Source: Bacteroidota bacterium (lineage in GTDB: Bacteria; Bacteroidota; Bacteroidia; Bacteroidales; UBA7960). From it: a stretch of DNA of 64,000 bases. Position 1 is the first letter of the stretch, and each line of letters opens with the position of its first letter. The position numbers were made by a program, and so were the translations under genes. This document shows, in pieces, positions 5,500 to 19,496 of the stretch. The stretch spans positions 23,893 through 87,892 of the forward strand of contig REDJ01000102.1 of assembly GCA_007693555.1 (NCBI GenBank), written 5' to 3'. The notes beneath the pieces were generated by a model. The model did not search any database and had not been told where the DNA came from. It saw only the letters and a list, made by a program, of their open reading frames with translations.

Positions 5500-6209
5500 C
5501 TATTTACTCCAGATGTTATATTTTACAATACACCATAGGGCCCTGAAACCATCTTTCCAGTTTATTTTTTTCCCTTCATCGTAAGTACGGCCATAGTAAG
5601 ATATCCCTACTTCATATATCCTGATGCCCGGGTACCTTGAGACCTTGCTGTAACCTCCGGTTCAAATCCAAACCGTCTCTCATTCAGCTTCAGGCTTTTC
5701 AATACCGGCGCTTTGAAAAACTTATAGCAGGTTTCCATGTCTGTGAGGTTTAGGTTTGTGAACATGTTGGAAAGAAAAGTGAGAAACCTGTTTCCTATAG
5801 TATGCCAGAAAAATAAAATCCGATGGGGATTTGAACCAATAAACCGCGATCCGTAAACCACATCTGCATTGCCTTCGAGTATCGGCTTGAGAAGATCACT
5901 ATATTCACGGGGGTCGTATTCAAGATCTGCATCCTGAATGATGATATAATCGCCAATGGCTTCTTTAATCCCCCGGTGAAGGACAGCCCCCTTTCCCATA
6001 TTTTTTTCCTGATTGTATATCCGGATATCTGAACTGTGATGATCTTTTAAAAAACCTTCCAGCACCGCTATAGTGTTATCTCTGCTACAGTCATTCACGA
6101 TTACAAGTTCCTTTTCAATCCCATCAAGTTCCACGGAAAGAATTCTTTTCAAAATTTCGGTGATGGTTTTTTCTTCATTAAACACAGGGATAACAACAGA
6201 AAGCTTCAT
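5500..6209 (-). pseudogene. Family 2 glycosyltransferase (DPM1/Ppm1-like, soluble) interrupted by a -1 nt frameshift near 5645
   Basis: The listed 200-aa ORF (5607..6209) ends '...[21 protein letters not shown]'. Shifting one base at 5644-5648 (plus-strand cttgc) gives '[48 protein letters not shown]', ending at 5500. I recognise this as the usual C-terminus of this GT2 family. Confidence 0.75.
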
Positions 6210-6241: not shown

Positions 6242-9200
6242 TTAAAATGCAGGACGTAATACCTGAACTTTCCTGGTAAAAATTTCTTTAACTGTAAAGA
6301 TACGTACTAGATAAATACCTGTGTTAAAATTAAATAAATTAAGTTTATGATTATTGCATGTACAATCATACTCATAAAGCAACCGTCCTGAAAGATCATG
6401 AAGTTGAATGAGGTTAATTTCATTTTCAGATGCGACGAAAAGAGCATCTGATGCAGGATTGGGATAGACCACAACCGAATTATTATCACCAAATAACCAG
6501 GGAGCATAAGCAAAAGAAGCTCTCAGCTCATGATTTTTATATGGGCTTTCAAACAAATAGGTGCCATAAAAATTATCTATGATTTCCACATCATCAAGTA
6601 TACTGACTCCATCCAGCCAAACGTTTTCTATGATATGGTTTGCATTGGGAACAACTAAAAACTCTTTTCTGGAACAGCAACTTATATTCATAATACCTGA
6701 TGGAAAGATCTGTCCATTATCCTCAGCAAGGCTTTTAAGAGTATATGCCATACAGACTACCCCATCAAGGGTGATATTGTTAAATATTACCCGCTTTTCA
6801 TTCTGAGCCCAAGGATTATCTGAAATAAACCTTATGCGTACCTTAAGGTGGGGGTTGTCGTAGGTGGCTTCCACATTACTGAGGTCAAGCTCTACAAGCT
6901 GGTACTGATCTGTAAGAGGGATAGTATTGGAGTTGCGTAATGATTGCCAGCTAATTTCTTCTGTAGTTGAATAATCAATCAGCAGCCCCTTTGCGGCTCC
7001 CTCATCTTTGACAGCAAAACGCAAAATCGGATCCTTAATATCAGGAGTTGGCAAGTGCAGCAACAGTGAACTCACATTATCGCCAAAAGCTAGGGGTTGC
7101 TTTATTTGTATGGCTCGCATCGCAGATTCATTGTACGGTAAGTCATTGTTACCTGCCGGACGGTAGTTTAAGGGTGTGGGTTCGTTACGCCGTTCCATAG
7201 AGCCCATTCGCCAATACTGGTGTCCTTCATAATAAGGGTAATCGGGCATACATGATATAAAATCTATTTTTGCACCACCAGCAATACTATAGTGTGGTTG
7301 TATTTCTTCAAGAGGCATATCATTAGCAAGCTGATTATCGAGCAACCAGTAATATACAAGCAATTCTTCACCGGTGGTAACAAAATGAGCAGTAACACTA
7401 AAATCACCCTCAGGATTCACAGAAAGTATGCTATCGTTGCTTGCATAATCTCCATCCCAGTGGCTAAACCTGTAGCCTTTAGCAGGTAACGCCACCAGTT
7501 CTATTGGCACTCCTTTGAAATAGTAACCTCTCCACGGGAATGGGTTTACATCTACTCCTGGTGTATCACCATGAATCTCTATAGAATTTACTTTTATATG
7601 TCCATGATATGGGTGTGATACATTTGCATTTATAACAACTTTACTATCAAGTTCAAAAAAGTCTGTCAAATGTTCTCTTATATAATTGTGCCTGTTGATA
7701 GCGAACTCCCTCATTACATTAACTTTAGCATCCCATGTCTCCAAATTTTCCCAATTTGACCAGCGCTGAAAATGTTCTTCCATTGCAGGAGTAATTGTAC
7801 TTTTCATCTCTTCAATAGTCTGAAGAACATATTGATGATGAAAACAAGTATTGAGTAAATCTGCAAAACGAATAATAAATTTATGTTTAAACTGTTCGTT
7901 TTCGAGGAAGCTTCTAAGCATAAATGTTGACCAATCAGGATTGGGCCAATTCTGTAAACCTACAGCGGTTGCAAACTCAAGGGTATTATGTTTATAAGAC
8001 TTTGGTTCACCAACAAGACCAAAACCAAAATCTGTATCGTACAACAACCAACGCCACCGGCCATCATGTCCATAAGGAGCATCAGGGGTGAATTGCTCGG
8101 TTCTTTTACGCCAATAATCTATATTGTTACCTGGCCAATCAGTATTCCGCAGGTAAATATTGGCTATTTGGTAATCCATAAAGCTTTTCTCATCAATTCT
8201 GGTAAGGATATATTGATAATTCTGATCATCACTTAAACTATTCTCCTCTATAAAATCAAGAGTTTGATTATAATGTACATTATCACCTTCTATAGGATCA
8301 TTGCGCATGGTTAACAAATCAATACTATCGGAATGTAATCCATAAACTCTTTCCAGATAATGTTTGTCATATCTTTCCCTTATATTATGTAAACCCCAGT
8401 ATTCTCCGTTAATAAAAACAATTACAGGTTCATAGAGTTGAATGTCAAAGTGCAGATGATTTACCAACCTCTGACTCATTGCATCACGAAACATTGTTTG
8501 GGGATTTTCGCCTTGTCCCCAGTGAGTTGTTAGAAAGTCCTGACCCCCATTTCGCAATATCAGCCTTTTAAATTCATCATATTCAGACCCTTTAAAAAAG
8601 GGATAACCAAAAGTATTTTCCCCATAAACTCCCCTGGCATATAAACGCAGAGATTTCATCGGGAATGAACGCGTCCCTCCACCATGAATCCTTATCCCAA
8701 GTCCCTGGTTCAGAACACTGAAAGACTCATCTTCGGGAATAAACTCCATATTACCAAAATATTCATAATCAATACCACGACGATGAAAATTACCAGGGAA
8801 AGGCCATGAAAAAGGTTGGTCAGGAAAACTGACTCGCCAATCATCTGCATCAATACCAGGAGTATAAATTCCTTTCTCATAATCGAAAAAATAGTTTTCC
8901 TGAATGGCAATGGAGACCACCGGCAAGGGTATTCTGCTTCTGCCCTGTTGTGAGATAAAAAAGGTATGGCTCGCGGTTTGACTTGGCAGCATTCCTTCGC
9001 GGTATGCCTTTGCACCAATTACCGTACCTTTAAAAACCGGTTCTTCAGGAAAATAATTGGGTGTTTGAACCGTAGTAGCCTTATGGGTTAGTTTATCTTC
9101 AAATGGTGTTCGATCTACAATTTCAATGGGAGAAGAATAAACATTTGACATAAACTGGTTTACCAGGAGTTCACCATCTTCGGAATCTGGATAGAAAGCA

Positions 9201-9889
9201 TATTGATTTTTGTAGAAATAGGTTTTCCCGCTCAGATTGGCGGTAGTAGGATTAGAGCCATCTGTTGTGTAAATGATTATTGCTTCAGGATCAGAATGAG
9301 TCAATATAAGGTTAAAACTTTCTTCATAAAACCCTCCGTGATGAGAAAATTCAGGAGGAGGAAGTATACCATAAAACCCTTCTGTAACATTGGGTAATCC
9401 CGGTGTAGGTTCATCAAAATAAAACCAGTCTCCCGTACCATCAGGCTTGCGACCATAGGATATGTCTGTAGGTACAGCAATTGGATTTACAACATCAACC
9501 CAGTTACCCGAGGGGTGCACGAGCAGCAATTCTTCTCCGGAAGCATCAATACTAAAGTTGGTATGCAATACGCCTTGTTTACGATCTTTACCTGAAGCCC
9601 ATACCAGCAGATATTCACCGGGCCCTATTGCTATATCAGGAAAAACCCAGCGAAAGGGATTTGAAAAATCATCTGATAATCCCCAGCCTTCAAGATACAC
9701 AGGGTCATCACCATAATTATAGAGCTCTATCCAGTCTTCAAAATCACCATCTTCATCGCTGATGGTTGATGAGTTGGAAGCCATAAATTCGTTGATGGAA
9801 AGGGTTTGGGCATGCAAAACCAACTGCCAGGAAAGAATTATTGCAGCAAAAAAAATATATCGGTACAACTTAAATTGCAGTGATTTCAC
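6242..9889 (-). CDS. Secreted CotH kinase-family protein with an N-terminal lamin-tail domain and a T9SS C-terminal sorting domain
   Basis: Signal peptide (…LVLHAQ). LTD-like 'INEFMASNSSTISDEDGDFEDWIELYNYGDDPVYLEGWGLSD'. CotH-like 'VIVFINGEYWGLHNIRERYDKHYL' and 'WRWLLYDTDFGFG'. C-terminus 'VVVYPNPASDALFV...GIYLVRIFT'. Confidence 0.85.
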   Translation of the reverse strand: MKSLQFKLYRYIFFAAIILSWQLVLHAQTLSINEFMASNSSTISDEDGDFEDWIELYNYGDDPVYLEGWGLSDDFSNPFRWVFPDIAIGPGEYLLVWASGKDRKQGVLHTNFSIDASGEELLLVHPSGNWVDVVNPIAVPTDISYGRKPDGTGDWFYFDEPTPGLPNVTEGFYGILPPPEFSHHGGFYEESFNLILTHSDPEAIIIYTTDGSNPTTANLSGKTYFYKNQYAFYPDSEDGELLVNQFMSNVYSSPIEIVDRTPFEDKLTHKATTVQTPNYFPEEPVFKGTVIGAKAYREGMLPSQTASHTFFISQQGRSRIPLPVVSIAIQENYFFDYEKGIYTPGIDADDWRVSFPDQPFSWPFPGNFHRRGIDYEYFGNMEFIPEDESFSVLNQGLGIRIHGGGTRSFPMKSLRLYARGVYGENTFGYPFFKGSEYDEFKRLILRNGGQDFLTTHWGQGENPQTMFRDAMSQRLVNHLHFDIQLYEPVIVFINGEYWGLHNIRERYDKHYLERVYGLHSDSIDLLTMRNDPIEGDNVHYNQTLDFIEENSLSDDQNYQYILTRIDEKSFMDYQIANIYLRNTDWPGNNIDYWRKRTEQFTPDAPYGHDGRWRWLLYDTDFGFGLVGEPKSYKHNTLEFATAVGLQNWPNPDWSTFMLRSFLENEQFKHKFIIRFADLLNTCFHHQYVLQTIEEMKSTITPAMEEHFQRWSNWENLETWDAKVNVMREFAINRHNYIREHLTDFFELDSKVVINANVSHPYHGHIKVNSIEIHGDTPGVDVNPFPWRGYYFKGVPIELVALPAKGYRFSHWDGDYASNDSILSVNPEGDFSVTAHFVTTGEELLVYYWLLDNQLANDMPLEEIQPHYSIAGGAKIDFISCMPDYPYYEGHQYWRMGSMERRNEPTPLNYRPAGNNDLPYNESAMRAIQIKQPLAFGDNVSSLLLHLPTPDIKDPILRFAVKDEGAAKGLLIDYSTTEEISWQSLRNSNTIPLTDQYQLVELDLSNVEATYDNPHLKVRIRFISDNPWAQNEKRVIFNNITLDGVVCMAYTLKSLAEDNGQIFPSGIMNISCCSRKEFLVVPNANHIIENVWLDGVSILDDVEIIDNFYGTYLFESPYKNHELRASFAYAPWLFGDNNSVVVYPNPASDALFVASENEINLIQLHDLSGRLLYEYDCTCNNHKLNLFNFNTGIYLVRIFTVKEIFTRKVQVLRPAF

Positions 9890-9953
9890 TCCGGATGATT
9901 TTGCGAATGGTTATGCACCAATTCCCCCAGTAAGATAGTTTGATCCATTCCTG

Positions 9954-9961
9954 CAAAAATA
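9954..9961 (-). promoter_or_regulatory. TAnnTTTG -7-like motif (TATTTTTG on the minus strand) upstream of the CotH gene
   Basis: Plus-strand caaaaata; 65 nt upstream of the start codon at 9889. Confidence 0.25.
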
Positions 9962-10005
9962 AACAATTAATACATAACTTCATATCTGGCAGTTAATATG
10001 TGTAT

Positions 10006-10047
10006 TTGAAAAAATAAGCCCCGGAAGTTTATGTTGCACCCGGGGCT
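10006..10047 (-). terminator. Rho-independent terminator after the beta-helix gene
   Basis: Perfect 9-bp stem aagccccgg / ccggggctt, followed on the minus strand by a T-run (plus-strand gaaaaaat). Confidence 0.6.
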
Positions 10048-10072
10048 TAATGTTGAAGTTTTAATGATAATA

Positions 10073-12298
10073 TTATTTGATTATGTTGAGTTTTCCTACA
10101 AAAGCTTTGTTGCCGGCTTGAAGGGTTACCACATAAATACCATTGGGAAGATGACCCACATCAATACTTTCTGTGGGGTTTTCAATCGTTTTTTGAAGAA
10201 CCGTTCTTCCGGTAAGATCGTTGATCATGATATCAGCTGATCCTTCTCCTTTCATATTTAAAACAAAATACGAATCGGCAGGATTGGGATAAATGCTAAG
10301 TTTTCCGGCTGCAAATTCGGGTACTGAAACCATAAATTCGAGTACAATATTCAGTTCAACATCGGCATCGGTTATTTCAATGGATCCTTCAAAATCCTGA
10401 TAATCTTCCGCATATATGACATATTCATAAACTCCCTGTAACAAATTCTCAAAGATATACTGCCCGGGATTGTATTCAACTTCATTCAGTTCTATTATTG
10501 CACCGGTAACATCCTGACCTTCCACATCCTTGATCACAAAGGTGAGAGTATAGGTCACCAATTCCATTATAACCGTAAGGAATACATCTTCATCAGTAAC
10601 CTCCAGGCTTCCTTCAACAGTATGATAACCAAAAAGTGTAATTATATATTCGTAGGTTCCGGGCAATACTTCTTCAAACACATAATCACCGGCATCATTG
10701 GTAATTCCATCGAAAGAAATGGCAGCATCGGTAAGCTCATTTTCTTCTTCATCCAAAATTGAAAAAGTTACCGTAAAGGTCTCAGGTTCCTCTGCTTCCA
10801 CAATCACATTCCACTCCACCTCCTCTCCGTGAGGGACGCTTGCAATGTATAAAACCGGTTCTGTAAAATCCTGTGCTTCACCCAAACCAGGTGTAACAGA
10901 AACGCCGGGTGGTAATTCAATATCAGGGACCAATTCAGTAACATCAGTAAACGCAGGGAAAAAGAAATAAATCTCCTGGTTTTCTTCATCAAAAATACCG
11001 GCATAATCTTCATCAAGACCGGGATTCAGGGCCTGTGTAAAACTAAATGACAGGATTTCGGGATGAAGGGTCATTATGGGATCGTACAAAATGGTTGTAA
11101 CTCCATCTTCGTCCGGCCTGGGCCATAAGGTATTTGAAGCCTGCTCAATATCATTATACCCAAGATAATTACCAATTGCAGAAATGATATTAGATGTTGC
11201 ATTGGCAATGGAGTGGATGAAAGCATCCTGATCAGCATAAAAATCATTTTCGTTTTCAAAAATGATGTTTCCCCCGTGATCATCTTCAGTGCCTATATCA
11301 GGTAATGCAGAATTTTGAATGGTTATACCCCAGAGATTTCCTGAGATAAGGTTATTTCTTACCACAGAAAAATTATTAGTATTCCCCAGAAAGTTTAATC
11401 CACTACCACCTAATCCAGGATTGCCCTGGATGTCATTGTCAAGAATAATATTATCACGTATAAGCGAGCTTATGTTATTACCTATTTGAGCATAACCGTA
11501 ACGATTAGCTATAATGGTATTATCTGCAACATGAGCAAGAGTATTGCCCAGGCCAACAAAATTACTTATTGCTATTCCCCCGGCATTGTCATTTAATCCC
11601 TCGACATAATTTCCAACAATATAAATTGTATCAGATGCACCAGGACCGAGATTTACTTGTGGTCGGTTGCTATTATTCATGGTATTATGAATAAAGGTGT
11701 TGTTAATAATATGTGGGGACCCGGTTACATTGGCCCCAGAAGCTATAGCAGAATTGGCGTTTGCTCTGAATTCAGTATTAAGTATAAACGGGCTGGAATT
11801 GCTGTAAGTAATGGCTGCACTTACATTGGAATCTCCGTTGTTTCGAAGCACACAATACTCAAACAGAGCTTCGGTGCCAATTAGCTGAATTCCACCACCG
11901 TATTTTACCACTGTATTTCGGAAAATGGCAGTATCCGCATCTTCAAAACGGAAGCCCCGGAAGTTATTTGCAGTAACCGTAGTATCCTGGGCGGTAAAGA
12001 CCACCTGGCCATCGGCAGGATCAGAAAGAAACTTTCCGGATACCTCAATCCTGATGTTGGCAGCCACCCGGATGGTTTCCGGTTGCATAATTTTCAATGT
12101 ATCGGTTGCAGAAATGATAAGGGTGTTGTTAACAAAATAATCGCCATCAGATGTGGTTACAACACCACCCGACAGGGTAACCAGGTCATCAAAAGTCAGA
12201 CTAAGATTGTTGCCGGGGGTTGTGTATTGAGCATTTGCATTGGTAAAAATAAAAATGATAGCAATAGAGTTTAATAAAAAGCGTAGTGATTTAGTCAT
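10073..12298 (-). CDS. Secreted right-handed parallel beta-helix repeat protein with two CarboxypepD_reg-like domains and a T9SS sorting domain
   Basis: Signal peptide MTKSLRFLLNSIAIIFIFTNANAQ, with the start chosen at 12298. Repetitive N/G-rich beta-helix turns (…NNTFIHNT…, …VGNYVEG…, …ADNTIIAN…, …RDNIILDN…, …VRNNLISGN…). Tandem roughly 70-aa repeats at residues 521-667. C-terminus 'SIYPNPADSYFVL…GIYVVTLQ'. Confidence 0.8.
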   Translation of the reverse strand: MTKSLRFLLNSIAIIFIFTNANAQYTTPGNNLSLTFDDLVTLSGGVVTTSDGDYFVNNTLIISATDTLKIMQPETIRVAANIRIEVSGKFLSDPADGQVVFTAQDTTVTANNFRGFRFEDADTAIFRNTVVKYGGGIQLIGTEALFEYCVLRNNGDSNVSAAITYSNSSPFILNTEFRANANSAIASGANVTGSPHIINNTFIHNTMNNSNRPQVNLGPGASDTIYIVGNYVEGLNDNAGGIAISNFVGLGNTLAHVADNTIIANRYGYAQIGNNISSLIRDNIILDNDIQGNPGLGGSGLNFLGNTNNFSVVRNNLISGNLWGITIQNSALPDIGTEDDHGGNIIFENENDFYADQDAFIHSIANATSNIISAIGNYLGYNDIEQASNTLWPRPDEDGVTTILYDPIMTLHPEILSFSFTQALNPGLDEDYAGIFDEENQEIYFFFPAFTDVTELVPDIELPPGVSVTPGLGEAQDFTEPVLYIASVPHGEEVEWNVIVEAEEPETFTVTFSILDEEENELTDAAISFDGITNDAGDYVFEEVLPGTYEYIITLFGYHTVEGSLEVTDEDVFLTVIMELVTYTLTFVIKDVEGQDVTGAIIELNEVEYNPGQYIFENLLQGVYEYVIYAEDYQDFEGSIEITDADVELNIVLEFMVSVPEFAAGKLSIYPNPADSYFVLNMKGEGSADIMINDLTGRTVLQKTIENPTESIDVGHLPNGIYVVTLQAGNKAFVGKLNIIK

Positions 12299-12370
12299 AT
12301 AATAAATTTTTAAATGAAAAAAATGCATGTTAAGCAAAGTTATTCATATTATTTGGGGAAAGCAATTGAA

Positions 12371-12407
12371 AAGGGTTGTCCGGAAAAATCCGGGCAACCC
12401 TTTTTTT
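12371..12407. terminator. Hairpin terminator between the GH13 3' end and the beta-helix gene start
   Basis: The 13-bp stem aagggttgtccgg / ccgggcaaccctt has one wobble. There is a T7 run on the plus strand and CTTTTC on the minus strand. Confidence 0.5.
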
Positions 12408-12426
12408 AAATTCATCAAAAAAGTTT

Positions 12427-14289
12427 TTATTCCAATTCCAGTACCAACGCCGTATTAGCCGGGATTCTCCATGTGCCGAACCCCCGAAATACCTGCCCGC
12501 TGACTACATCGGTGGCCATATTGTATCCATGGGTGGACTCCTGAAAACGGCGGGTATTGAGTTCCATTTCCCTGGCATTGTTATTCAAAACTACCATAAC
12601 CGTTTCATCTTCATTATACCGGAAGTAAACATAAATATTGTTTTCGGGTACAAAATGTTTCAGCCAGCCATAGTGCAGTACCTCCTTATCTTTCCGATAA
12701 TTGAGAAGTTTGGTCAGGTAATCTACGATTTCATTCTGTTCTGCTGTTCGGCCTTCACGTGTAAAGGCATTTACGGGGTCACCGGTCCAGCCGCCGGGAA
12801 AAGTTACCCTGAGTTTACCATGCCCCTCATGCTCACGAGCCGATTCCAAAGTTTCAATACCGGTATAAAACTGTGGAATTCCGCGGGTAGTTACCAGAAA
12901 TGCAATAGCCATTTTCAGTTTATCCATATCTTCACCAACCCGGGTAAAAATCCTGTCGGTATCGTGGTTATCGCCAAAGATCACCAGGTTATAAGGATTA
13001 GCATATAAAAAGTCCTGGGCAAGGGAATTGTACAACCTCATCATTCCTGAACTCCATCCCTGCTCTTCCTGGAATGCCATACCAATGGCATCATAAAGGG
13101 AAAAATCAAAAACCGCAGGGAAATTTGAGTTGTAACCGTCGTGTTGTACTTTTCCTCCCTGAAAATAGCTGGTAAGTACCGGGTTGCCACTCCAGGACTC
13201 TCCTACGATATTAAAATTTGGATATTCTGCCATAACATAAGCCGCCCAGTCTGCCATAAAAAACCTGTCAGCATAAGGCTGTGTATCCATGCGGATACCG
13301 TGAATACCGGAGTATTCGATCCACCATACGCTGTTTTGAATGAGATAGAGTGCCAGCAAGCGGTTGCGCTGGTTCAGGTCGGGCATATTGGTATCGAACC
13401 ATCCATTCACCATAATGTCGTAATCAGATTGTGCAAAATAGGGATCCACGATGGTGGTCATACGATAAGATGTGCGTGTAAATTCATCCCATTGGTTCAG
13501 CCAGTCGGAGGTGGGCAGATCTTTCATCCACCAGTGATAATGGCCACAATGGTTGAATATTTTATCCTTGATGATCTTTAAGCCTTTGCTTTCGGCTTCT
13601 TTTACGAGGCGCACGTAATCTTCGTTACTGCCAAATCGTGCATCGATATTGTAAAAATCGGTGGTGGCATAACCGTGATAGGAATAGCGGGGCTGATTGT
13701 TTTCAAGCAGCGGATTGATCCAGATGGCGGTAAAACCCATCCCGGCAATATGATCAAGATGGTTTATGATACCCTGTATATCACCTCCCTGGCGTGCGTC
13801 GGGGTTGGTGCGATCAACCTTCTCAAGCATTCCCGGCAGATTGTCAAGCGCAGGATTACCATTGGCAAAACGATCGGGCATAAGAAGGTAGATAGCATCG
13901 GAATTGTCGAAACCCTCATGATAGCGGGCATTTTCCCGTCGTTCGCGTAATTCAAAATTATAGGAATAGCGGGTGCGCCTTCCGGCCACAAATTCAATAT
14001 CAAACATACCCGGTTGTGCACCGGTAATGTCCAGGTAAATAAAAAGGTAGTTGGGGCTTTCCACTGCAACCACTTCTCTGAGTTTTACTCCGGGGTGATC
14101 GATCTTAACACGGGTCTGCCCTATGTCTTCACCATATACCATAATCTGCAACTCCTTGTGATACATATCTGCCCACCAGAAGGGAGGCTCAACACGCTCA
14201 GGCACATTGCGCGCAATACTTTGCAACGAAACCAGCAGTATCACTGCAAAAAGCAGCATCATCCTTTTCATTCCGATATTTTGTTTCAT
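12427..14289 (-). CDS. Glycoside hydrolase family 13 (cyclomaltodextrinase/neopullulanase-like, SusA-like), exported
   Basis: Signal peptide MKQNIGMKRMMLLFAVILLVSLQSIA. N-terminal 'PPFWWADM…LQIMVYGEDI' domain. GH13 regions 'DAIYLLMPDRFANG', 'GFTAIWINP', 'KIIKDKIFNHCG', 'GIRMDTQPY', 'VGESW', 'FGDNHDTDR'. Confidence 0.9.
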   Translation of the reverse strand: MKQNIGMKRMMLLFAVILLVSLQSIARNVPERVEPPFWWADMYHKELQIMVYGEDIGQTRVKIDHPGVKLREVVAVESPNYLFIYLDITGAQPGMFDIEFVAGRRTRYSYNFELRERRENARYHEGFDNSDAIYLLMPDRFANGNPALDNLPGMLEKVDRTNPDARQGGDIQGIINHLDHIAGMGFTAIWINPLLENNQPRYSYHGYATTDFYNIDARFGSNEDYVRLVKEAESKGLKIIKDKIFNHCGHYHWWMKDLPTSDWLNQWDEFTRTSYRMTTIVDPYFAQSDYDIMVNGWFDTNMPDLNQRNRLLALYLIQNSVWWIEYSGIHGIRMDTQPYADRFFMADWAAYVMAEYPNFNIVGESWSGNPVLTSYFQGGKVQHDGYNSNFPAVFDFSLYDAIGMAFQEEQGWSSGMMRLYNSLAQDFLYANPYNLVIFGDNHDTDRIFTRVGEDMDKLKMAIAFLVTTRGIPQFYTGIETLESAREHEGHGKLRVTFPGGWTGDPVNAFTREGRTAEQNEIVDYLTKLLNYRKDKEVLHYGWLKHFVPENNIYVYFRYNEDETVMVVLNNNAREMELNTRRFQESTHGYNMATDVVSGQVFRGFGTWRIPANTALVLELE

Positions 14290-14389
14290 TTTGTTTATTT
14301 TGAAATGTGAATAATTTTTTACGGTTATGGCTAACTGGTAAGAAATGCAAATATACATCAGGCTTATGAATCCATATTCAAAAAGAATT

Positions 14390-17300
14390 CTAATTTCTGA
14401 TGATTTTCAGTTGTCTGGTTCCGTTTTTGGTTTTTACATTGAGTAAATAAATACCCGGGCCAATATCTGAAAGATCGACAATAGCTTCCCGTTTTCCCAG
14501 TGATTCCTTTCTAAGAAGCAGGCTGCCTGCAATATCAAATATTTCAATTACTTCGATCTCTTCATCAGCAGAAATATGGAAACGATCCCTGGAAGGATTA
14601 GGATATACTTTTACTTCGGGTAATGCAAAACTAATGGTACCTGTAGGGATATATTCAACACCTTTCAGTGTAATATTATCAAAACGGTTGTTACCGGTAC
14701 TTTGGGATGTGTTTCCACTGAATTCAATCCGGATGTGAAAATCGGGATTGTTATTTACTTCAGGAATATGCGAAAAATCCACTGTTACCATCTCATATTC
14801 TTCTCCAATGTCAAATGAAGTTTGTTGCAGATCATCCTGGATGAAGCTGACACCATCGATTGAGTAATAAATGTAATGATTCAGCATTCCCTGCAAAGAA
14901 CGTTGCACGGCATATGAGAAAACCAGATCCTGATACCCATCGGAAGGCATGTTAAAAAGCAAAGATCTATTGAGTGAGGGATTACGCACCCTCACCGCCT
15001 GACCGGCTTCTTCTATAAACTGCAGATTGAGGTCGGAACCTTCAGGAAAAACATCCATATCCCTTGCCCCGTAACCCTCATAATATATCCTTGCATTAGC
15101 ATCTTCATATATCTGATAATCGGCATATACATATCTTATGTCGTCACCGCTTGTTTCCAAATCATTGAAATGCCAGTAATACAGAAGTTCTTTTTCATCT
15201 GCAAAGGGATTATGGAAAACTGCCGTTATTTCACCCTCTTCCTGCAGTTCAAATAGCAGAACAGGATCAAGAGAATCTGCCTGCAAAATATGATTGTCTG
15301 CCTCCCAGTGACTGAAAGTCCATGCTCCTCTACCCCTGGCCTCCAGCCGTGTATCTATTCCACCGTATAAAACGGCATCAAAAGGATAATCAGTTAACCA
15401 TACCGAATTCATTTTTATCTGCCCGGTAAATTCGGGATATACATTGATATTAAAGCTATACGGACCTTCCAGGTTATAGCAACTTATCAGCCCATGAACC
15501 AGAGCTTCGCAGCGTTGATAAAGAAAATCCCTGACATCCTGCACATTGGACAGCCAGGTGTTTATATTTCCACCCCAGCGTGCAATTTGCCCGGGCATTT
15601 CAGGTTCAATCACAGCAACCATACTGTCAAGTACATGAATTGCATTTTCGCACGAAAGATGGGTATTGAGCAGATCTATATACCTGGTAACATACTTGCG
15701 CCACACATATTCATTTTCAGTAATGAGTTTGTTAAGGCTCTGGGCGTGACCATTACCCACATTGAGGTTTTCAACATTGCATGGTAGAGCATTTGCCGTA
15801 ATGTCTGGAATACCTGTATAATTGTGGAAATGCCCAAGTGCAGCTTCCATATCCCATAAAATATACCTCCATTGTTTAGCACCTCCGTCGGGATGAAGCC
15901 CCCGCCACCAACCGGTGTTGTAGTTCAGCCAGTCACGCGAAACTATATAGGAGTTGAACACAAAGTAATCTATCAGACTCTCCAGGTTCATGAGACTGTC
16001 AACGTAGGCAAAAGCCGCATGGTCACCCATGAAATTATTGCTGATAAAACTCCTTATGTGGTTCCAATCGTCAACAGCTTGCTGTTCTCCATACTTGGGA
16101 TGGGTAGCTCCCCAGGTTTTCAGAAACTGAATATATTCGGTACTTCCTTTGTATTTACGGGGCTGATTATAGTAAAACTCGGTATAATCTTTATCATCAA
16201 CCTTTTCCCTGAGGTCATAAACCCCCCAGTACTCACCGTTAACATAAAGGATAACATTGAGGGAACTTCTGACATCAAGATCAAGATCAATGAGTTGCGA
16301 TAACGACTGAATGTAAGAATCTCTGATATGTGCTCCGCCATTTTCAAAGGGGTAATTGTCGTTGGCAGCTGCCTTTACCATAAGGCGCTGGAACTTGGTA
16401 CGTTCTGATGTGGGAAAAAACTCATGAGTAAGATAACGGTTATAGCCGTATTCATCTCGTGATATAAAATCGACACCCCTTTGCGGATAGTTCCATGAAT
16501 CATTTCCGTGCTTGTTAAAATCGCCCACCGACTTGTCAACAAAAACTCCATCAGAATCAAAGTACTCAAAGGCACCTATGGTTTCAATCTGCGTGCCCCC
16601 AAAAAGCACAAACAACTCATCACCGCTGAAAGAAAATACAGGCAGGGTATATGATTTGCTTATAAAGAATGTTTTGGTTTCTATGAAACCCGGTATGATC
16701 TGTGGGTTTTCGGAAAAGGTTCTTGCCCTGATAACAGTGGTCTCGTCAATCAAAATTGGCTCCGTATAAAGAGCAGAATGGGAAGTGGGCTCTGAACCGT
16801 CAACCGTATATCGTATCACTGCATTGTTATCAGGAGTGGTAATAGTCAGATGGAAAGGTTCATCATAAAAACCTGCTTCGTGCGATATCAAAGGCATTGA
16901 AGTATAGGCCGACCTATGATTCATATTGAACGAGCCGGGGGTGGGGTTTTCAAAAATGCCCCAGGTGCCGTCACCACTTGTGGTGCGACCGAATGAGTGA
17001 CCATTTTGTGTTACAAACAGGGGGTAGCTTTCAAGCATATTTCCATCGGGGTCAGAAAAGATGATACTTTCGGGTTTTAGCTGGGTAAGACGAAAATTGG
17101 TGTGAGGCGTCTCACCTGCCATGGCATCTCTGCCCGAGCAAATGACCAGCAGGTGACCTCCGGGAGGTAAGATACCACCCGGAAACTGCCACTTCAAAGG
17201 ATTATCAGGATCGTCACTCAGATAATAGCCGGTTAAATCCACATAATCACCCGAAGGATTATAAAGCTCAACCCAATCTTCATAGTTCCCAAACTGATCC

Positions 17301-18142
17301 AACATCTGGCGGTTTGATGCTGAATATTCGTTTATCACAACCTCACCTTCTCCAAATTCAATTTCACCATGTGTAATTTCAACGTATCTCCTGCTTAAAT
17401 AATTAAAATTGGTATTGCACCCTGAACCTCCCCAAACTCTTGACGAATAAAAAGTCAGTTCTACCTGCCCGTCGGATATACCTGATGCCAGACCAGAGTT
17501 TAGCGAATAAGTTTGCGTACCCGCATTATTGCCACTACCCTGAAAAACCTGTGTCTGACCGGTAGGTCCACTCACATATGATCTTTGATCAGACATCCAC
17601 GCATTGCTCCCTTCCACAGCTACAAAATCCCAAAGTAAAAAGGTATTTAGGATAAAATGGTCCTCGGGAATGGGAATATTTAAAGCACTTTCGTAATAAT
17701 GCGGGAAAAAGCATGATGGTATAATAGTGTAATCATCAATCGAGGTGGAGTCCAGATCAGAGGATATGTAATTCTTTGGCAGGTAATCAGTTGAACGTAA
17801 CCATCCGCTGCTGTCAGTGTAATGCAGGGGAGTATCTGATTTTACCGTAGTGAAACTACCATCGGCATTAAGGAATAATCTTGTATAAGAAGTTCTCTTA
17901 TGTATCAGCTCAAGGCTTTCTCTCTGGTCATGGTTTTTCAACCGGGTAGCACCAAATTCAGGATGCTGATGGTAATACTCCGGAATTTCCTGTTGCCAGA
18001 GAATATTAGCAGGCTTATATTGACCATTGATAACTCCGGCTTTACCGGCAGCTGATAAAAATGTCTGCCCAATTAGCGAATTCATTAAAATGAAAAAAAC
18101 TATAAGGACACACGGGAACCAAAAATTGTAAATGCTTTTCAT
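14390..18142 (-). CDS. Secreted CotH kinase-family protein (second paralogue) with an internal lamin-tail domain and a T9SS sorting domain
   Basis: Signal peptide. LTD-like 'VVINEYSASNRQMLDQFGNYEDWVELYNPSGDYVDLTGYYLSDD'. CotH-like 'NVILYVNGEYWGVYDLREKVDDKDY' and 'WRYILWDMEAALGHF'. C-terminus 'KVYPNPSRDRFHI…GIYLLNVKT'. Confidence 0.85.
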   Translation of the reverse strand: MKSIYNFWFPCVLIVFFILMNSLIGQTFLSAAGKAGVINGQYKPANILWQQEIPEYYHQHPEFGATRLKNHDQRESLELIHKRTSYTRLFLNADGSFTTVKSDTPLHYTDSSGWLRSTDYLPKNYISSDLDSTSIDDYTIIPSCFFPHYYESALNIPIPEDHFILNTFLLWDFVAVEGSNAWMSDQRSYVSGPTGQTQVFQGSGNNAGTQTYSLNSGLASGISDGQVELTFYSSRVWGGSGCNTNFNYLSRRYVEITHGEIEFGEGEVVINEYSASNRQMLDQFGNYEDWVELYNPSGDYVDLTGYYLSDDPDNPLKWQFPGGILPPGGHLLVICSGRDAMAGETPHTNFRLTQLKPESIIFSDPDGNMLESYPLFVTQNGHSFGRTTSGDGTWGIFENPTPGSFNMNHRSAYTSMPLISHEAGFYDEPFHLTITTPDNNAVIRYTVDGSEPTSHSALYTEPILIDETTVIRARTFSENPQIIPGFIETKTFFISKSYTLPVFSFSGDELFVLFGGTQIETIGAFEYFDSDGVFVDKSVGDFNKHGNDSWNYPQRGVDFISRDEYGYNRYLTHEFFPTSERTKFQRLMVKAAANDNYPFENGGAHIRDSYIQSLSQLIDLDLDVRSSLNVILYVNGEYWGVYDLREKVDDKDYTEFYYNQPRKYKGSTEYIQFLKTWGATHPKYGEQQAVDDWNHIRSFISNNFMGDHAAFAYVDSLMNLESLIDYFVFNSYIVSRDWLNYNTGWWRGLHPDGGAKQWRYILWDMEAALGHFHNYTGIPDITANALPCNVENLNVGNGHAQSLNKLITENEYVWRKYVTRYIDLLNTHLSCENAIHVLDSMVAVIEPEMPGQIARWGGNINTWLSNVQDVRDFLYQRCEALVHGLISCYNLEGPYSFNINVYPEFTGQIKMNSVWLTDYPFDAVLYGGIDTRLEARGRGAWTFSHWEADNHILQADSLDPVLLFELQEEGEITAVFHNPFADEKELLYYWHFNDLETSGDDIRYVYADYQIYEDANARIYYEGYGARDMDVFPEGSDLNLQFIEEAGQAVRVRNPSLNRSLLFNMPSDGYQDLVFSYAVQRSLQGMLNHYIYYSIDGVSFIQDDLQQTSFDIGEEYEMVTVDFSHIPEVNNNPDFHIRIEFSGNTSQSTGNNRFDNITLKGVEYIPTGTISFALPEVKVYPNPSRDRFHISADEEIEVIEIFDIAGSLLLRKESLGKREAIVDLSDIGPGIYLLNVKTKNGTRQLKIIRN

Positions 18143-18188
18143 GTTTAATTTTAATTTCTGTTATCATTTAAGGTTGAAATACATTTTA

Positions 18189-19274
18189 TCACCCGATAGC
18201 CTTCTGTATCAGTAAGAATTCATTGACGTTTTCCAAATCAAGAATACCCTTGAATTTCTCATTCTCAATTACCGGTACCAGATCATACCCGCTTTTTCGT
18301 AATTCCACATAGGCCTCAAACAAAGGCATATCAGAATTTACAGATTTTATATCCCGGCTCATTACCTCCTTAACCTTGCCTTCTTTTCCATGCGAACTTA
18401 ATCCTTTTATAAGGTCATTTTTGGTAAGTATTCCTGCATACTCACCCTCTGATTTAATAATAAATCCTCTGTCGGATATCTGAACAAGTTTTTGAGCAGC
18501 CTCACCCAGTGTATCCTCAGCATCCAGGTTTGAATAATCTTCAGTGAGAACATCTTTTACAGTATAATTGTCAAGAATATCCTGGTATTTTATCATCTGA
18601 TGCTCTCCTTTGGCACCCAGTAAAATGAAAAAACCGATAATGATCAGGAAAGGGTTGATAAACAATCCGGCAATAATAAAAATTATGGCAAATATCTGTC
18701 CAATATCTTTGGCAATGGTGGTGGCTTTCAACCGGCTCATTTTCATGGACAATGCTGAGCGGAAAAGCCGGCCGCCATCCATGGGAAATGCGGGTATAAG
18801 GTTAAAGGCAACTATAAAAAGGTTGGCTGCCAACAGCATGAGCGGGAAGTTACTTATCGTAATGGTTTCAAACTCCATGTCGCTTACTTTTACCGGATGG
18901 ATAAAAGCCAGGTAAAGCCAGAGAATAGCAGCAATTACAACATTTACAGCCGGACCTGCTGCCGAAACCAGGAATTCTTCCCTGGGTTTCTCAGGCATTT
19001 TGGATAAATTGGCCATGCCTCCAATTGGAAGAAGTGTAATACTTTCAACCTTTCCTCCAAACCTGATAGCAACAAGCGAATGACCGAATTCGTGCAATAC
19101 AACACATACAAATAATGCGAGTACAAATACAATATGCATGAGAATCTGCTCAATGCCAAGTCCGCGATTTAAACTTACAAATACAATCCAGGCAATTAAC
19201 AATGAAAAAGTCCAGTGTACTGATACCCGGATTCCGAATGGGTTTCCTAAATTCAGTGAATATCTGCTTTGCAT
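18189..19274 (-). CDS. M50-family site-2 metalloprotease with a C-terminal CBS domain pair
   Basis: HExxH motif 'LHEFGHSLVA' in a TM helix and a second metal-ligand region 'NLIPAFPMDGGR'. The C-terminal half has two CBS-like repeats. Confidence 0.85.
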   Translation of the reverse strand: MQSRYSLNLGNPFGIRVSVHWTFSLLIAWIVFVSLNRGLGIEQILMHIVFVLALFVCVVLHEFGHSLVAIRFGGKVESITLLPIGGMANLSKMPEKPREEFLVSAAGPAVNVVIAAILWLYLAFIHPVKVSDMEFETITISNFPLMLLAANLFIVAFNLIPAFPMDGGRLFRSALSMKMSRLKATTIAKDIGQIFAIIFIIAGLFINPFLIIIGFFILLGAKGEHQMIKYQDILDNYTVKDVLTEDYSNLDAEDTLGEAAQKLVQISDRGFIIKSEGEYAGILTKNDLIKGLSSHGKEGKVKEVMSRDIKSVNSDMPLFEAYVELRKSGYDLVPVIENEKFKGILDLENVNEFLLIQKAIG

Positions 19275-19496
19275 AAGTAAATCTTTTTACGGATCGGGTT
19301 CCGGAAACTTTAAGAAATTGACACACATATGAACCCGAAATTCCTTGTTATCATATCAAAAATAAGGCTTTCTTGTCAAATGGTCATTATAACAATGATA
19401 AAGTTTAAATAACGTGCTTTTCAAATCGGTAATATAACCTAAAATATTTACTACTTTTATCTTTAAGTTTTCTGTTTAAAAGGTAAAACTGAAATT

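Follow-up and report, generated by a model that had tools for sequence, protein, structure and literature searches.

Bacillus CotH, a spore-coat Ser/Thr kinase, is a single-domain protein of ~360 residues that belongs to PF08757 and adopts an atypical kinase fold. CotB and CotG, two coat proteins, are its substrates inside the mother cell (PMC7821199), and substitution of D228 or D251 inactivates the B. subtilis kinase (Freitas et al. 2020, PMC7821199). Here, we describe two relatives, CotH1 (P0001) and CotH2 (P0002), encoded in a 64,000-nucleotide stretch of DNA of a soda-lake Bacteroidales bacterium (Bacteroidota; C7:23893-87892, hereafter the window) from a 4.2-Mb, 247-contig genome bin; the stretch is also contained in public runs labelled soda lake metagenome. 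Both proteins have the catalytic Asp/Asn and metal-binding Asp in common with Bacillus CotH and differ from it in being multidomain, 1215–1250 residues long and putative substrates of Sec and of type IX secretion (T9SS). The reading that we prefer, with a probability of roughly 60%, is that they are two distant members, from different subfamilies, of a large and already annotated family of T9SS-exported proteins combining a lamin-tail domain (LTD) with a CotH core, that phosphotransfer is their likely activity and that their gene neighbourhood is incidental.

The ORF listing and translations gave both open reading frames (ORFs) exactly the coordinates and lengths reported in a preliminary description of the window, which had also assigned the two proteins the same architecture. 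Profile scans (Pfam, NCBIfam) found an LTD, CHB_HEX_C, CotH and a T9SS C-terminal domain (CTD) in both, and the shared LTD, CotH core and tail therefore stand; the architectures are similar rather than identical, with CotH2 having an additional N-terminal extension of ~240 residues (Table 1). In CotH1, the PF08757 match covers the full profile (positions 1–322; 173.7 bits, cut-off 23.8), and CHB_HEX_C_1/Fn3_assoc occupies residues 185–309. The corresponding CotH2 match (residues 603–879, 88.9 bits) covers profile positions 46–320 only, and this protein further contains LTD at residues 265–372, CHB_HEX_C_1 at 423–478 and Por_Secre_tail at 1179–1248. An InlB-B-repeat-like module had been attributed to both; in CotH1 it was recovered by Pfam as Flg_new_2 (residues 789–837) at a score barely over the cut-off (24.3 and 23.6 bits, respectively), and in CotH2 the segment is visible by pairwise alignment to CotH1 only, not by hidden Markov model. 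Across ~1065 residues, the two proteins are 26% identical (E 3e-83, pairwise alignment), a level that identifies them as distant, anciently diverged paralogues from different subfamilies, homologous along most of their length. The CotH2 extension had no Pfam match at E ≤ 1, and a PDB sequence search with it gave nothing usable. It is conserved in full-length members of the subfamily, those of other phyla included, and relatives (L022, L023) match from residues 3–5.

CotH genes of this kind are numerous. A profile search of the bin found seven full CotH matches, all in ORFs of 1061–1417 residues, as well as an eighth gene truncated at the start of contig C203, and 30 of 41 related genomes contain between one and nine matches. 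At least 6765 database proteins match the CotH1 core at E ≤ 1e-10, and a 1215-residue protein identical to CotH1 (P0007) is present in the database. The 120 best core matches listed, from Bacteroidales, Bacteroidia and Balneolales bins, are 50–70% identical over the core and have the same LTD/CotH/CHB_HEX_C/Fn3_assoc/Flg_new_2/Por_Secre_tail domain set as CotH1; NCBI labels some ‘CotH kinase family protein’ and others ‘T9SS ... domain-containing protein’. The LTD–CotH–T9SS architecture is thus already known and annotated. Literature searches combining CotH with T9SS or the lamin-tail domain returned only cellulosome and fungal papers, with no CotH–T9SS link, in agreement with the earlier statement that no role for T9SS CotH proteins has been established in Bacteroidota.

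The kinase-like core was analyzed by a combination of profile searches and structure modelling. Single-sequence phmmer searches of the PDB with CotH1 and CotH2 found no CotH match, and profiles of the paralogues or of the CotH2 subfamily reached B. cereus CotH (5JD9). AlphaFold2 (AF2) modelling of the CotH2 core (residues 490–900) from an 85-sequence alignment gave a pLDDT of 91.9, and Foldseek matched this model to 5JDA (E 4.3e-13, TMt 0.77) and 5JD9 (E 8.3e-13, TMt 0.75) over 418–425 aligned columns. These were the sole strong PDB matches, with HipA and PI-kinase folds far behind. Because the model contains the full two-lobe fold, the partial Pfam match of CotH2 can be attributed to an N-lobe that has diverged in sequence rather than to its absence. 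The fold was modelled for CotH2, and CotH1 was placed by its stronger PF08757 sequence match.

By profile alignment, B. cereus D224, N229 and D247 fall in the motifs ‘NFDGFVHN’ and ‘PWDYD’, and D224/D247 correspond to B. subtilis D228/D251, the two Asp residues being 23 residues apart in both species. Mapping to 5JD9 D224/N229/D247/D249 assigned D584 and N589 to the catalytic loop and D618 and D620 to the metal site of CotH1; the equivalent CotH2 residues are D737 and N742, and D764 and E766. The D/N/D positions are invariant in the alignment of CotH1, four other paralogues, the 5JD9 fragment and all 81 CotH2-subfamily sequences, which come from several phyla and in which the NGxYWG...E motif is likewise invariant (81/81). 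Asp/Asn/Asp is therefore kept in both proteins on alignment to the Bacillus catalytic positions, and with these residues in place the proposal of an extracellular or surface kinase, already made in the preliminary description, stays the best reading; judged on sequence, CotH1 and CotH2 are plausibly active enzymes. The alternative offered there, a pair of pseudokinases, was rejected on residue conservation.

CotH1 and CotH2 also have homologous modules of ~200 residues ahead of the sorting tail (C-modules), which end in a ‘GNNRFDNI(S/T)LxG’-type strand and for which no Pfam or PDB sequence match was found. An AF2 model of the CotH2 C-module, built from a 36-sequence alignment, is a beta-jelly-roll (pLDDT 90.8). 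The best Foldseek matches were to the carbohydrate-binding modules (CBMs) CBM22, CBM4, CBM27, CBM15 and CBM11, followed by MAM domains and adhesin domains of gingipains; E-values ran from 2e-5 to 1e-3 and TM-scores from 0.35 to 0.67. On the model, the C-module would be a generic ligand-binding fold, compatible with glycan binding but no proof of it. The module is widespread, with 3439 cluster representatives at E ≤ 1e-3 in a 1.84-billion-protein library, often as two to five tandem copies per protein; in the bin itself it occurs at least 10 times, including in non-CotH proteins on contigs C107 and C115.

Both sorting tails score above the cut-offs for the NCBIfam T9SS type A sorting domain TIGR04183 (23 bits) and for Por_Secre_tail, PF18962 (27 bits). 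The N-termini, assessed by inspection only, are hydrophobic, with putative cleavage after ...VLHA in CotH1 and ...SLIG in CotH2, each followed by QT. The predicted N-terminal Gln fits the Bacteroidetes Q-rule (PMC5837995). The same genome encodes the SprA translocon (SprA_N, 575.6 bits in a 2435-residue ORF) and 114 Por_Secre_tail ORFs. Among 80 CotH2-like loci, a PorP/SprF gene comes next after the CotH gene in 42 (Flavobacteriales relatives, L031–L099), a DUF2490 outer-membrane barrel lies beside it in 28 and a small lipoprotein in 33. Export of CotH1 and CotH2 by Sec and T9SS is plausible from these features. Type A cargo of P. gingivalis is described as cleaved and attached to anionic lipopolysaccharide (PMC8545088), and by analogy CotH1 and CotH2 are probably surface-attached.

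The most likely mechanism can be outlined as follows. Each CotH protein would be synthesized with a Sec signal peptide and then, most likely and by analogy with other type A cargo, either be set free or become covalently anchored at the cell surface. The complete atypical-kinase fold, with Asp/Asn/Asp intact, would be flanked by beta-sandwich modules (LTD, CHB_HEX_C/Fn3_assoc, InlB-B-like and the CBM-like jelly-roll) that probably serve to bind it to some extracellular polymer, and the reaction would be the transfer of a phosphoryl group to a protein or glycan of the surface or matrix. Fam20-type kinases are reportedly kinase-fold enzymes of an extracytoplasmic compartment, and some are said to phosphorylate glycans, which provides a precedent for a glycan substrate. 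They are eukaryotic Golgi enzymes with lumenal ATP, and any homology to CotH would be no more than distant.

Comparison of CotH1 with its positional orthologue in G020 (L016:5863-9450) revealed a mosaic. The LTD, C-module and CTD are 88, 73 and 75% identical, respectively, and the flanking genes 83–97%, with only 39–46% identity over the segment from CHB_HEX_C to the CotH core, which suggests either that another kinase-core cassette has been substituted or that this cassette evolves very rapidly. For CotH2, subfamily proteins 52–55% identical to it were found on gammaproteobacterial contigs (L024–L027 and L029; Wenzhouxiangella and other soda-lake or other sediment bins) of 61–65% GC, the genes themselves having 54–61% GC. 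These proteins have two C-modules and no T9SS tail, a combination that points to cross-phylum transfer of the subfamily in which the sorting signal was lost or exchanged.

With regard to the neighbouring genes, it was borne out that CotH1 and CotH2 lie on the same strand and bracket a T9SS cargo protein (P0003) and a GH13 enzyme (P0004), and that a gene for an M50 metalloprotease with CBS domains (P0005) is located immediately upstream of CotH2; all five genes are on the minus strand within 13 kb. P0003, previously described as a T9SS beta-helix protein, combines an N-rich repeat region and a type A CTD with two CarboxypepD_reg-like domains (Pfam, NCBIfam). Its designation as T9SS cargo is upheld; the beta-helix is not backed by a family or structure, as its N-terminal 480 residues had no Pfam match at E ≤ 1 and no PDB sequence match at E ≤ 10, and has only a repeat motif, [IVLFA]x[NDG]Nx[IVLF], recurring each 23–33 residues, in its favour. 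The GH13 enzyme matches Cyc-maltodext_N (102 bits), Alpha-amylase (161.8 bits) and Cyc-maltodext_C (80.8 bits; all Pfam), the domain set being that of periplasmic SusA-type/neopullulanase-like enzymes. It carries a signal peptide but lacks a T9SS tail. A GH77/MFS/PfkB-type kinase operon lies 11 kb from it, and the enzyme suits the utilization of starch or maltodextrin rather than a surface-modifying role. P0005 gave 81.6 bits for Peptidase_M50 and 62.5 bits for CBS (two stretches), and its HExxH motif is seen in ‘LHEFGH’. On the 3' side of CotH1, a GT2 gene (5607–6209, minus strand) encodes 200 residues, compared with a 237-residue ORF in G005 and two frames in G020; the discrepancy would fit a frameshift or an error in sequencing. 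Contigs from an alkali-sediment metatranscriptome were 90–95% identical to parts of P0003, GH13, CotH2 and M50 (window 10500–19300), with little coverage of CotH1, and hint that relatives express these genes in situ.

Terminator-like hairpins follow the stop codons of both GH13 and P0003. Boxes of the Bacteroidota −7 type (TAnnTTTG) lie ahead of the probable start codons of GH13, P0003, CotH1 and M50. CotH2 lacks one; the M50–CotH2 gap has no such box, and co-transcription of these two genes is accordingly possible. From hairpins and box positions, the likely transcription units are M50–CotH2, GH13, P0003, and CotH1 with what follows it. The −7 motif occurs at chance frequency window-wide (77 seen, 78 expected), and box positions are therefore only suggestive; a sigma-70 scan gave 56 sites for 42 expected with a consensus that is uninformative for this phylum.

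Conservation of the neighbourhood was examined in related genomes. CotH2 orthologues are 66% identical in G012 and G007 and 54% in G005. Among genomes of the same genus, the G005 orthologue lies between HTH/TPR genes and an RND efflux operon, that of G012 between MacB/HlyD genes and a TonB-dependent receptor gene, and adjacency of M50 and CotH2 is not conserved among the genomes compared. No homologue of GH13, P0003, M50, VTC or DUF4956 was found by tblastn within 10 kb of CotH2-subfamily loci in public genomes (0/80). CotH1 orthologues in G020 and G005 retain the downstream GT2 and membrane-protein genes. The order GH13, P0003, CotH1 is retained in G005 (L020), and P0003 followed by CotH1 in G021 and G002; only this last pair recurs, in four genomes and not in at least three others (G012, G015 and G017), where the P0003 orthologue lies away from any CotH gene. 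The residue is a lineage-restricted P0003–CotH1 synteny, and the bracket around P0003 and GH13, with M50 upstream, is best described as an incidental, lineage-specific juxtaposition of separate transcription units.

Table 1. Genes, domains and transcription signals of the CotH1–CotH2 region (window positions)
Feature	Position	Strand	Basis or remark
CotH1 (P0001), 1215 aa	6242..9889	-	ORF listing, translation, Pfam, NCBIfam
CotH1 domain order			signal peptide, LTD, CHB_HEX_C/Fn3_assoc, CotH core, InlB-B-like, CBM-like C-module, T9SS type A CTD
CotH1 T9SS type A CTD, residues 1141-1209	6263..6469	-	PF18962 40.6 bits; TIGR04183 41.3 bits
CotH1 C-module, residues ~838-1045, predicted CBM-like beta-jelly-roll	6755..7378	-	homology to modelled CotH2 C-module
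CotH1 kinase-like core, residues 399-737	7679..8695	-	PF08757, 173.7 bits; residue mapping to 5JD9
CotH1 lamin-tail domain, residues 28-135	9485..9808	-	PF00932, 59.1 bits, cut-off 34.3
TATTTTTG -7 box ahead of CotH1 start	9954-9961	-	motif scan
Terminator-like hairpin and U-run after P0003 stop	10008..10049	-	fold -19.3 kcal/mol, z -4.8
P0003, 754-aa ORF, T9SS cargo	10073..12298	-	likely start ATG 12298
TAACTTTG -7 box after GH13 hairpin, ahead of P0003	12335-12342	-	motif scan
Terminator-like hairpin after GH13 stop	12372..12401	-	fold -20.2 kcal/mol, z -5.2
GH13 (P0004), 643-aa ORF	12427..14289	-	likely start ATG 14289; TATATTTG -7 box 14348-14355
CotH2 (P0002), 1250 aa	14390..18142	-	ORF listing, translation, Pfam, NCBIfam, pairwise alignment
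CotH2 domain order			signal peptide, family-less N-extension, LTD, CHB_HEX_C, CotH core, diverged InlB-B-like, CBM-like C-module, T9SS type A CTD
CotH2 T9SS type A CTD, residues 1179-1248	14399..14608	-	PF18962 43.9 bits; TIGR04183 47.4 bits
CotH2 C-module, residues 976-1175, modelled beta-jelly-roll resembling CBMs	14618..15217	-	AF2, Foldseek
CotH2 kinase-like core as modelled, residues 490-900	15443..16675	-	AF2, Foldseek, residue conservation
CotH2 N-terminal extension, residues ~26-264	17351..18067	-	conserved in subfamily
M50 metalloprotease with two CBS (P0005), 361 aa	18189..19274	-	46 nt upstream of CotH2

A number of observations weigh against two active surface kinases in an incidental setting. 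ATP is not expected outside the cell, so that kinase activity at the surface requires an unexplained phosphoryl donor, and we know of no biochemical evidence for any T9SS CotH protein. CotH2 has E766 where B. cereus has D249 (Glu in 17 and Asp in 64 of the 81 subfamily sequences), two conserved basic N-lobe positions are swapped between K/R in CotH1-type and R/K in CotH2-type proteins, and, with respect to the nucleotide-binding residues of the N-lobe, the profile alignments with B. cereus CotH begin no earlier than residue 84 or 106. P0003 again adjoins CotH1 in four genomes of the genus, which leaves a link to this one neighbour some probability, and the metatranscriptome contigs stem from related strains and may include DNA. 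The missing ATP, the Glu of CotH2 and its partial Pfam match would suit one or both proteins being pseudokinase scaffolds or adhesins in which the CotH fold is only a binding surface, as would the many binding-type domains that they contain and the Mucorales CotH proteins, which act as receptors for host GRP78 (PMC9973265), such fungal invasins being thought to act by binding. We regard such a non-catalytic role as rather improbable, given that invariance of Asp/Asn/Asp and NGxYWG...E through several phyla is expected under selection for catalysis, that a D-to-E change is conservative and is polymorphic inside the CotH2 subfamily, and that a full two-lobe fold was modelled at high confidence. 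The co-orientation of the five genes within 13 kb, three of them for T9SS cargo, the partial synteny in G005, G021 and G002 and the CBM-like fold of the C-module could be taken to favour a surface-layer or matrix-modification unit made up of both CotH proteins, P0003, GH13 and perhaps M50, as the preliminary description had supposed from the glycan-active enzymes nearby. This proposal did not survive, and we consider it very improbable indeed: the orthologues are scattered, with those of CotH2 among unrelated genes in G005 and G012 and those of P0003 away from CotH in three genomes; none of the 80 related loci has a GH13, M50 or P0003 homologue at hand; strong hairpins after GH13 and P0003 are each followed by a separate −7 box ahead of the next gene; GH13 is of the periplasmic SusA type, without a T9SS tail and near the GH77/MFS/kinase operon; and a T9SS cargo gene is a common neighbour in a genome with 114 ORFs of this type. 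The operon or module idea was rejected on synteny and terminators.

It is further conceivable, and in our estimate unlikely, that secreted CotH proteins work with the VTC-like polyphosphate polymerase/DUF4956 modules of the genome, for example by using or decorating exported polyphosphate. This would fit the sets of cotH, polyphosphate polymerase and DUF4956 genes known from other bacteria, among them the Gram-positive pel operons (PMC7112168), and in S. intermedius, cells aggregate less through Pel once SIR_1594, the gene of a secreted CotH-like protein, has been deleted (PMC12345266). Two HlyD-like/VTC/DUF4956 modules are present in the bin, CotH adjoins VTC in G010, G024 and G026, and DUF2490 barrels stand beside CotH in the 28 loci mentioned above. 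Across the related genomes, 25 have both CotH and VTC, 5 CotH only, 3 VTC only and 8 neither; without correction for phylogeny, this gives an odds ratio of 13 (p 0.0014, n=41). Among the genomes from outside the genus, the association loses its significance (6/4/3/6, p 0.37). Also against it, VTC and DUF4956 are confined to contigs C226 and C120, with none in the window, no homologue of either lies within 10 kb of the 80 CotH2-like loci (tblastn), and no CotH is known from biochemical work to use polyphosphate. A VTC/DUF4956 neighbour was considered for CotH1 and CotH2, and the nearest copies were found on other contigs. We thus retain the reading of two T9SS-exported CotH-family proteins with likely phosphotransfer activity.

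The two HlyD-like (361 residues)/VTC/DUF4956 sets are located at C226:97-2509 and C120:47151-49658. C226 is a 2.5-kb contig that ends inside DUF4956, and C203:3-8852 starts inside a CotH gene, followed by two more CotH genes; the two contigs may represent an assembly break within one VTC-plus-triple-CotH locus. A wider speculation, which we hold to be decidedly doubtful, is that T9SS CotH proteins are extracellular phosphotransferases supplied with polyphosphate or another exported phosphoryl carrier from VTC-like/DUF4956 modules, which would get round the lack of ATP outside the cell, that their CBM- and Ig-like modules aim them at glycans or proteins of the matrix of the producing cell, and that fast swapping of kinase-core cassettes between paralogues diversifies their substrates.

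Bacteroidota and allied phyla are very rich in secreted proteins of the CotH family, with thousands in public data, and if one proved to be an active surface phosphotransferase, extracellular phosphorylation in bacteria would become a subject for study. The CotH1/CotH2 locus adds nothing special to this, its gene neighbourhood being uninformative; better entry points would be the VTC/DUF4956-linked loci, or loci of cultured Flavobacteriia with adjacent PorP/SprF.

Set beside the known systems, CotH2 is ~11–12% identical to B. cereus CotH over the structural alignment, and unlike Bacillus CotH, neither CotH1 nor CotH2 has a CotB/CotG-like neighbour. The subfamily of CotH2 is a separate one, set apart by the additional N-terminal region, and it is also found, without the T9SS tail, in Gammaproteobacteria. 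SIR_1592–1594 of S. intermedius and the Gram-positive pel systems offer a secreted CotH-like protein in a non-sporulating bacterium with a genetic link to extracellular polysaccharide (PMC7112168, PMC12345266). The genome described here shares VTC/DUF4956 modules with Gram-positive pel operons; unlike the pel systems, CotH1 and CotH2 are not adjacent to these modules, have no pel operon and would be exported by T9SS. The database proteins annotated as T9SS ‘CotH kinase family’ members in Bacteroidota and allied groups have the same domain order and size, and nothing essential sets CotH1 and CotH2 apart from them; as far as their sequences indicate, both are probably ordinary and active T9SS-exported members of the CotH family.

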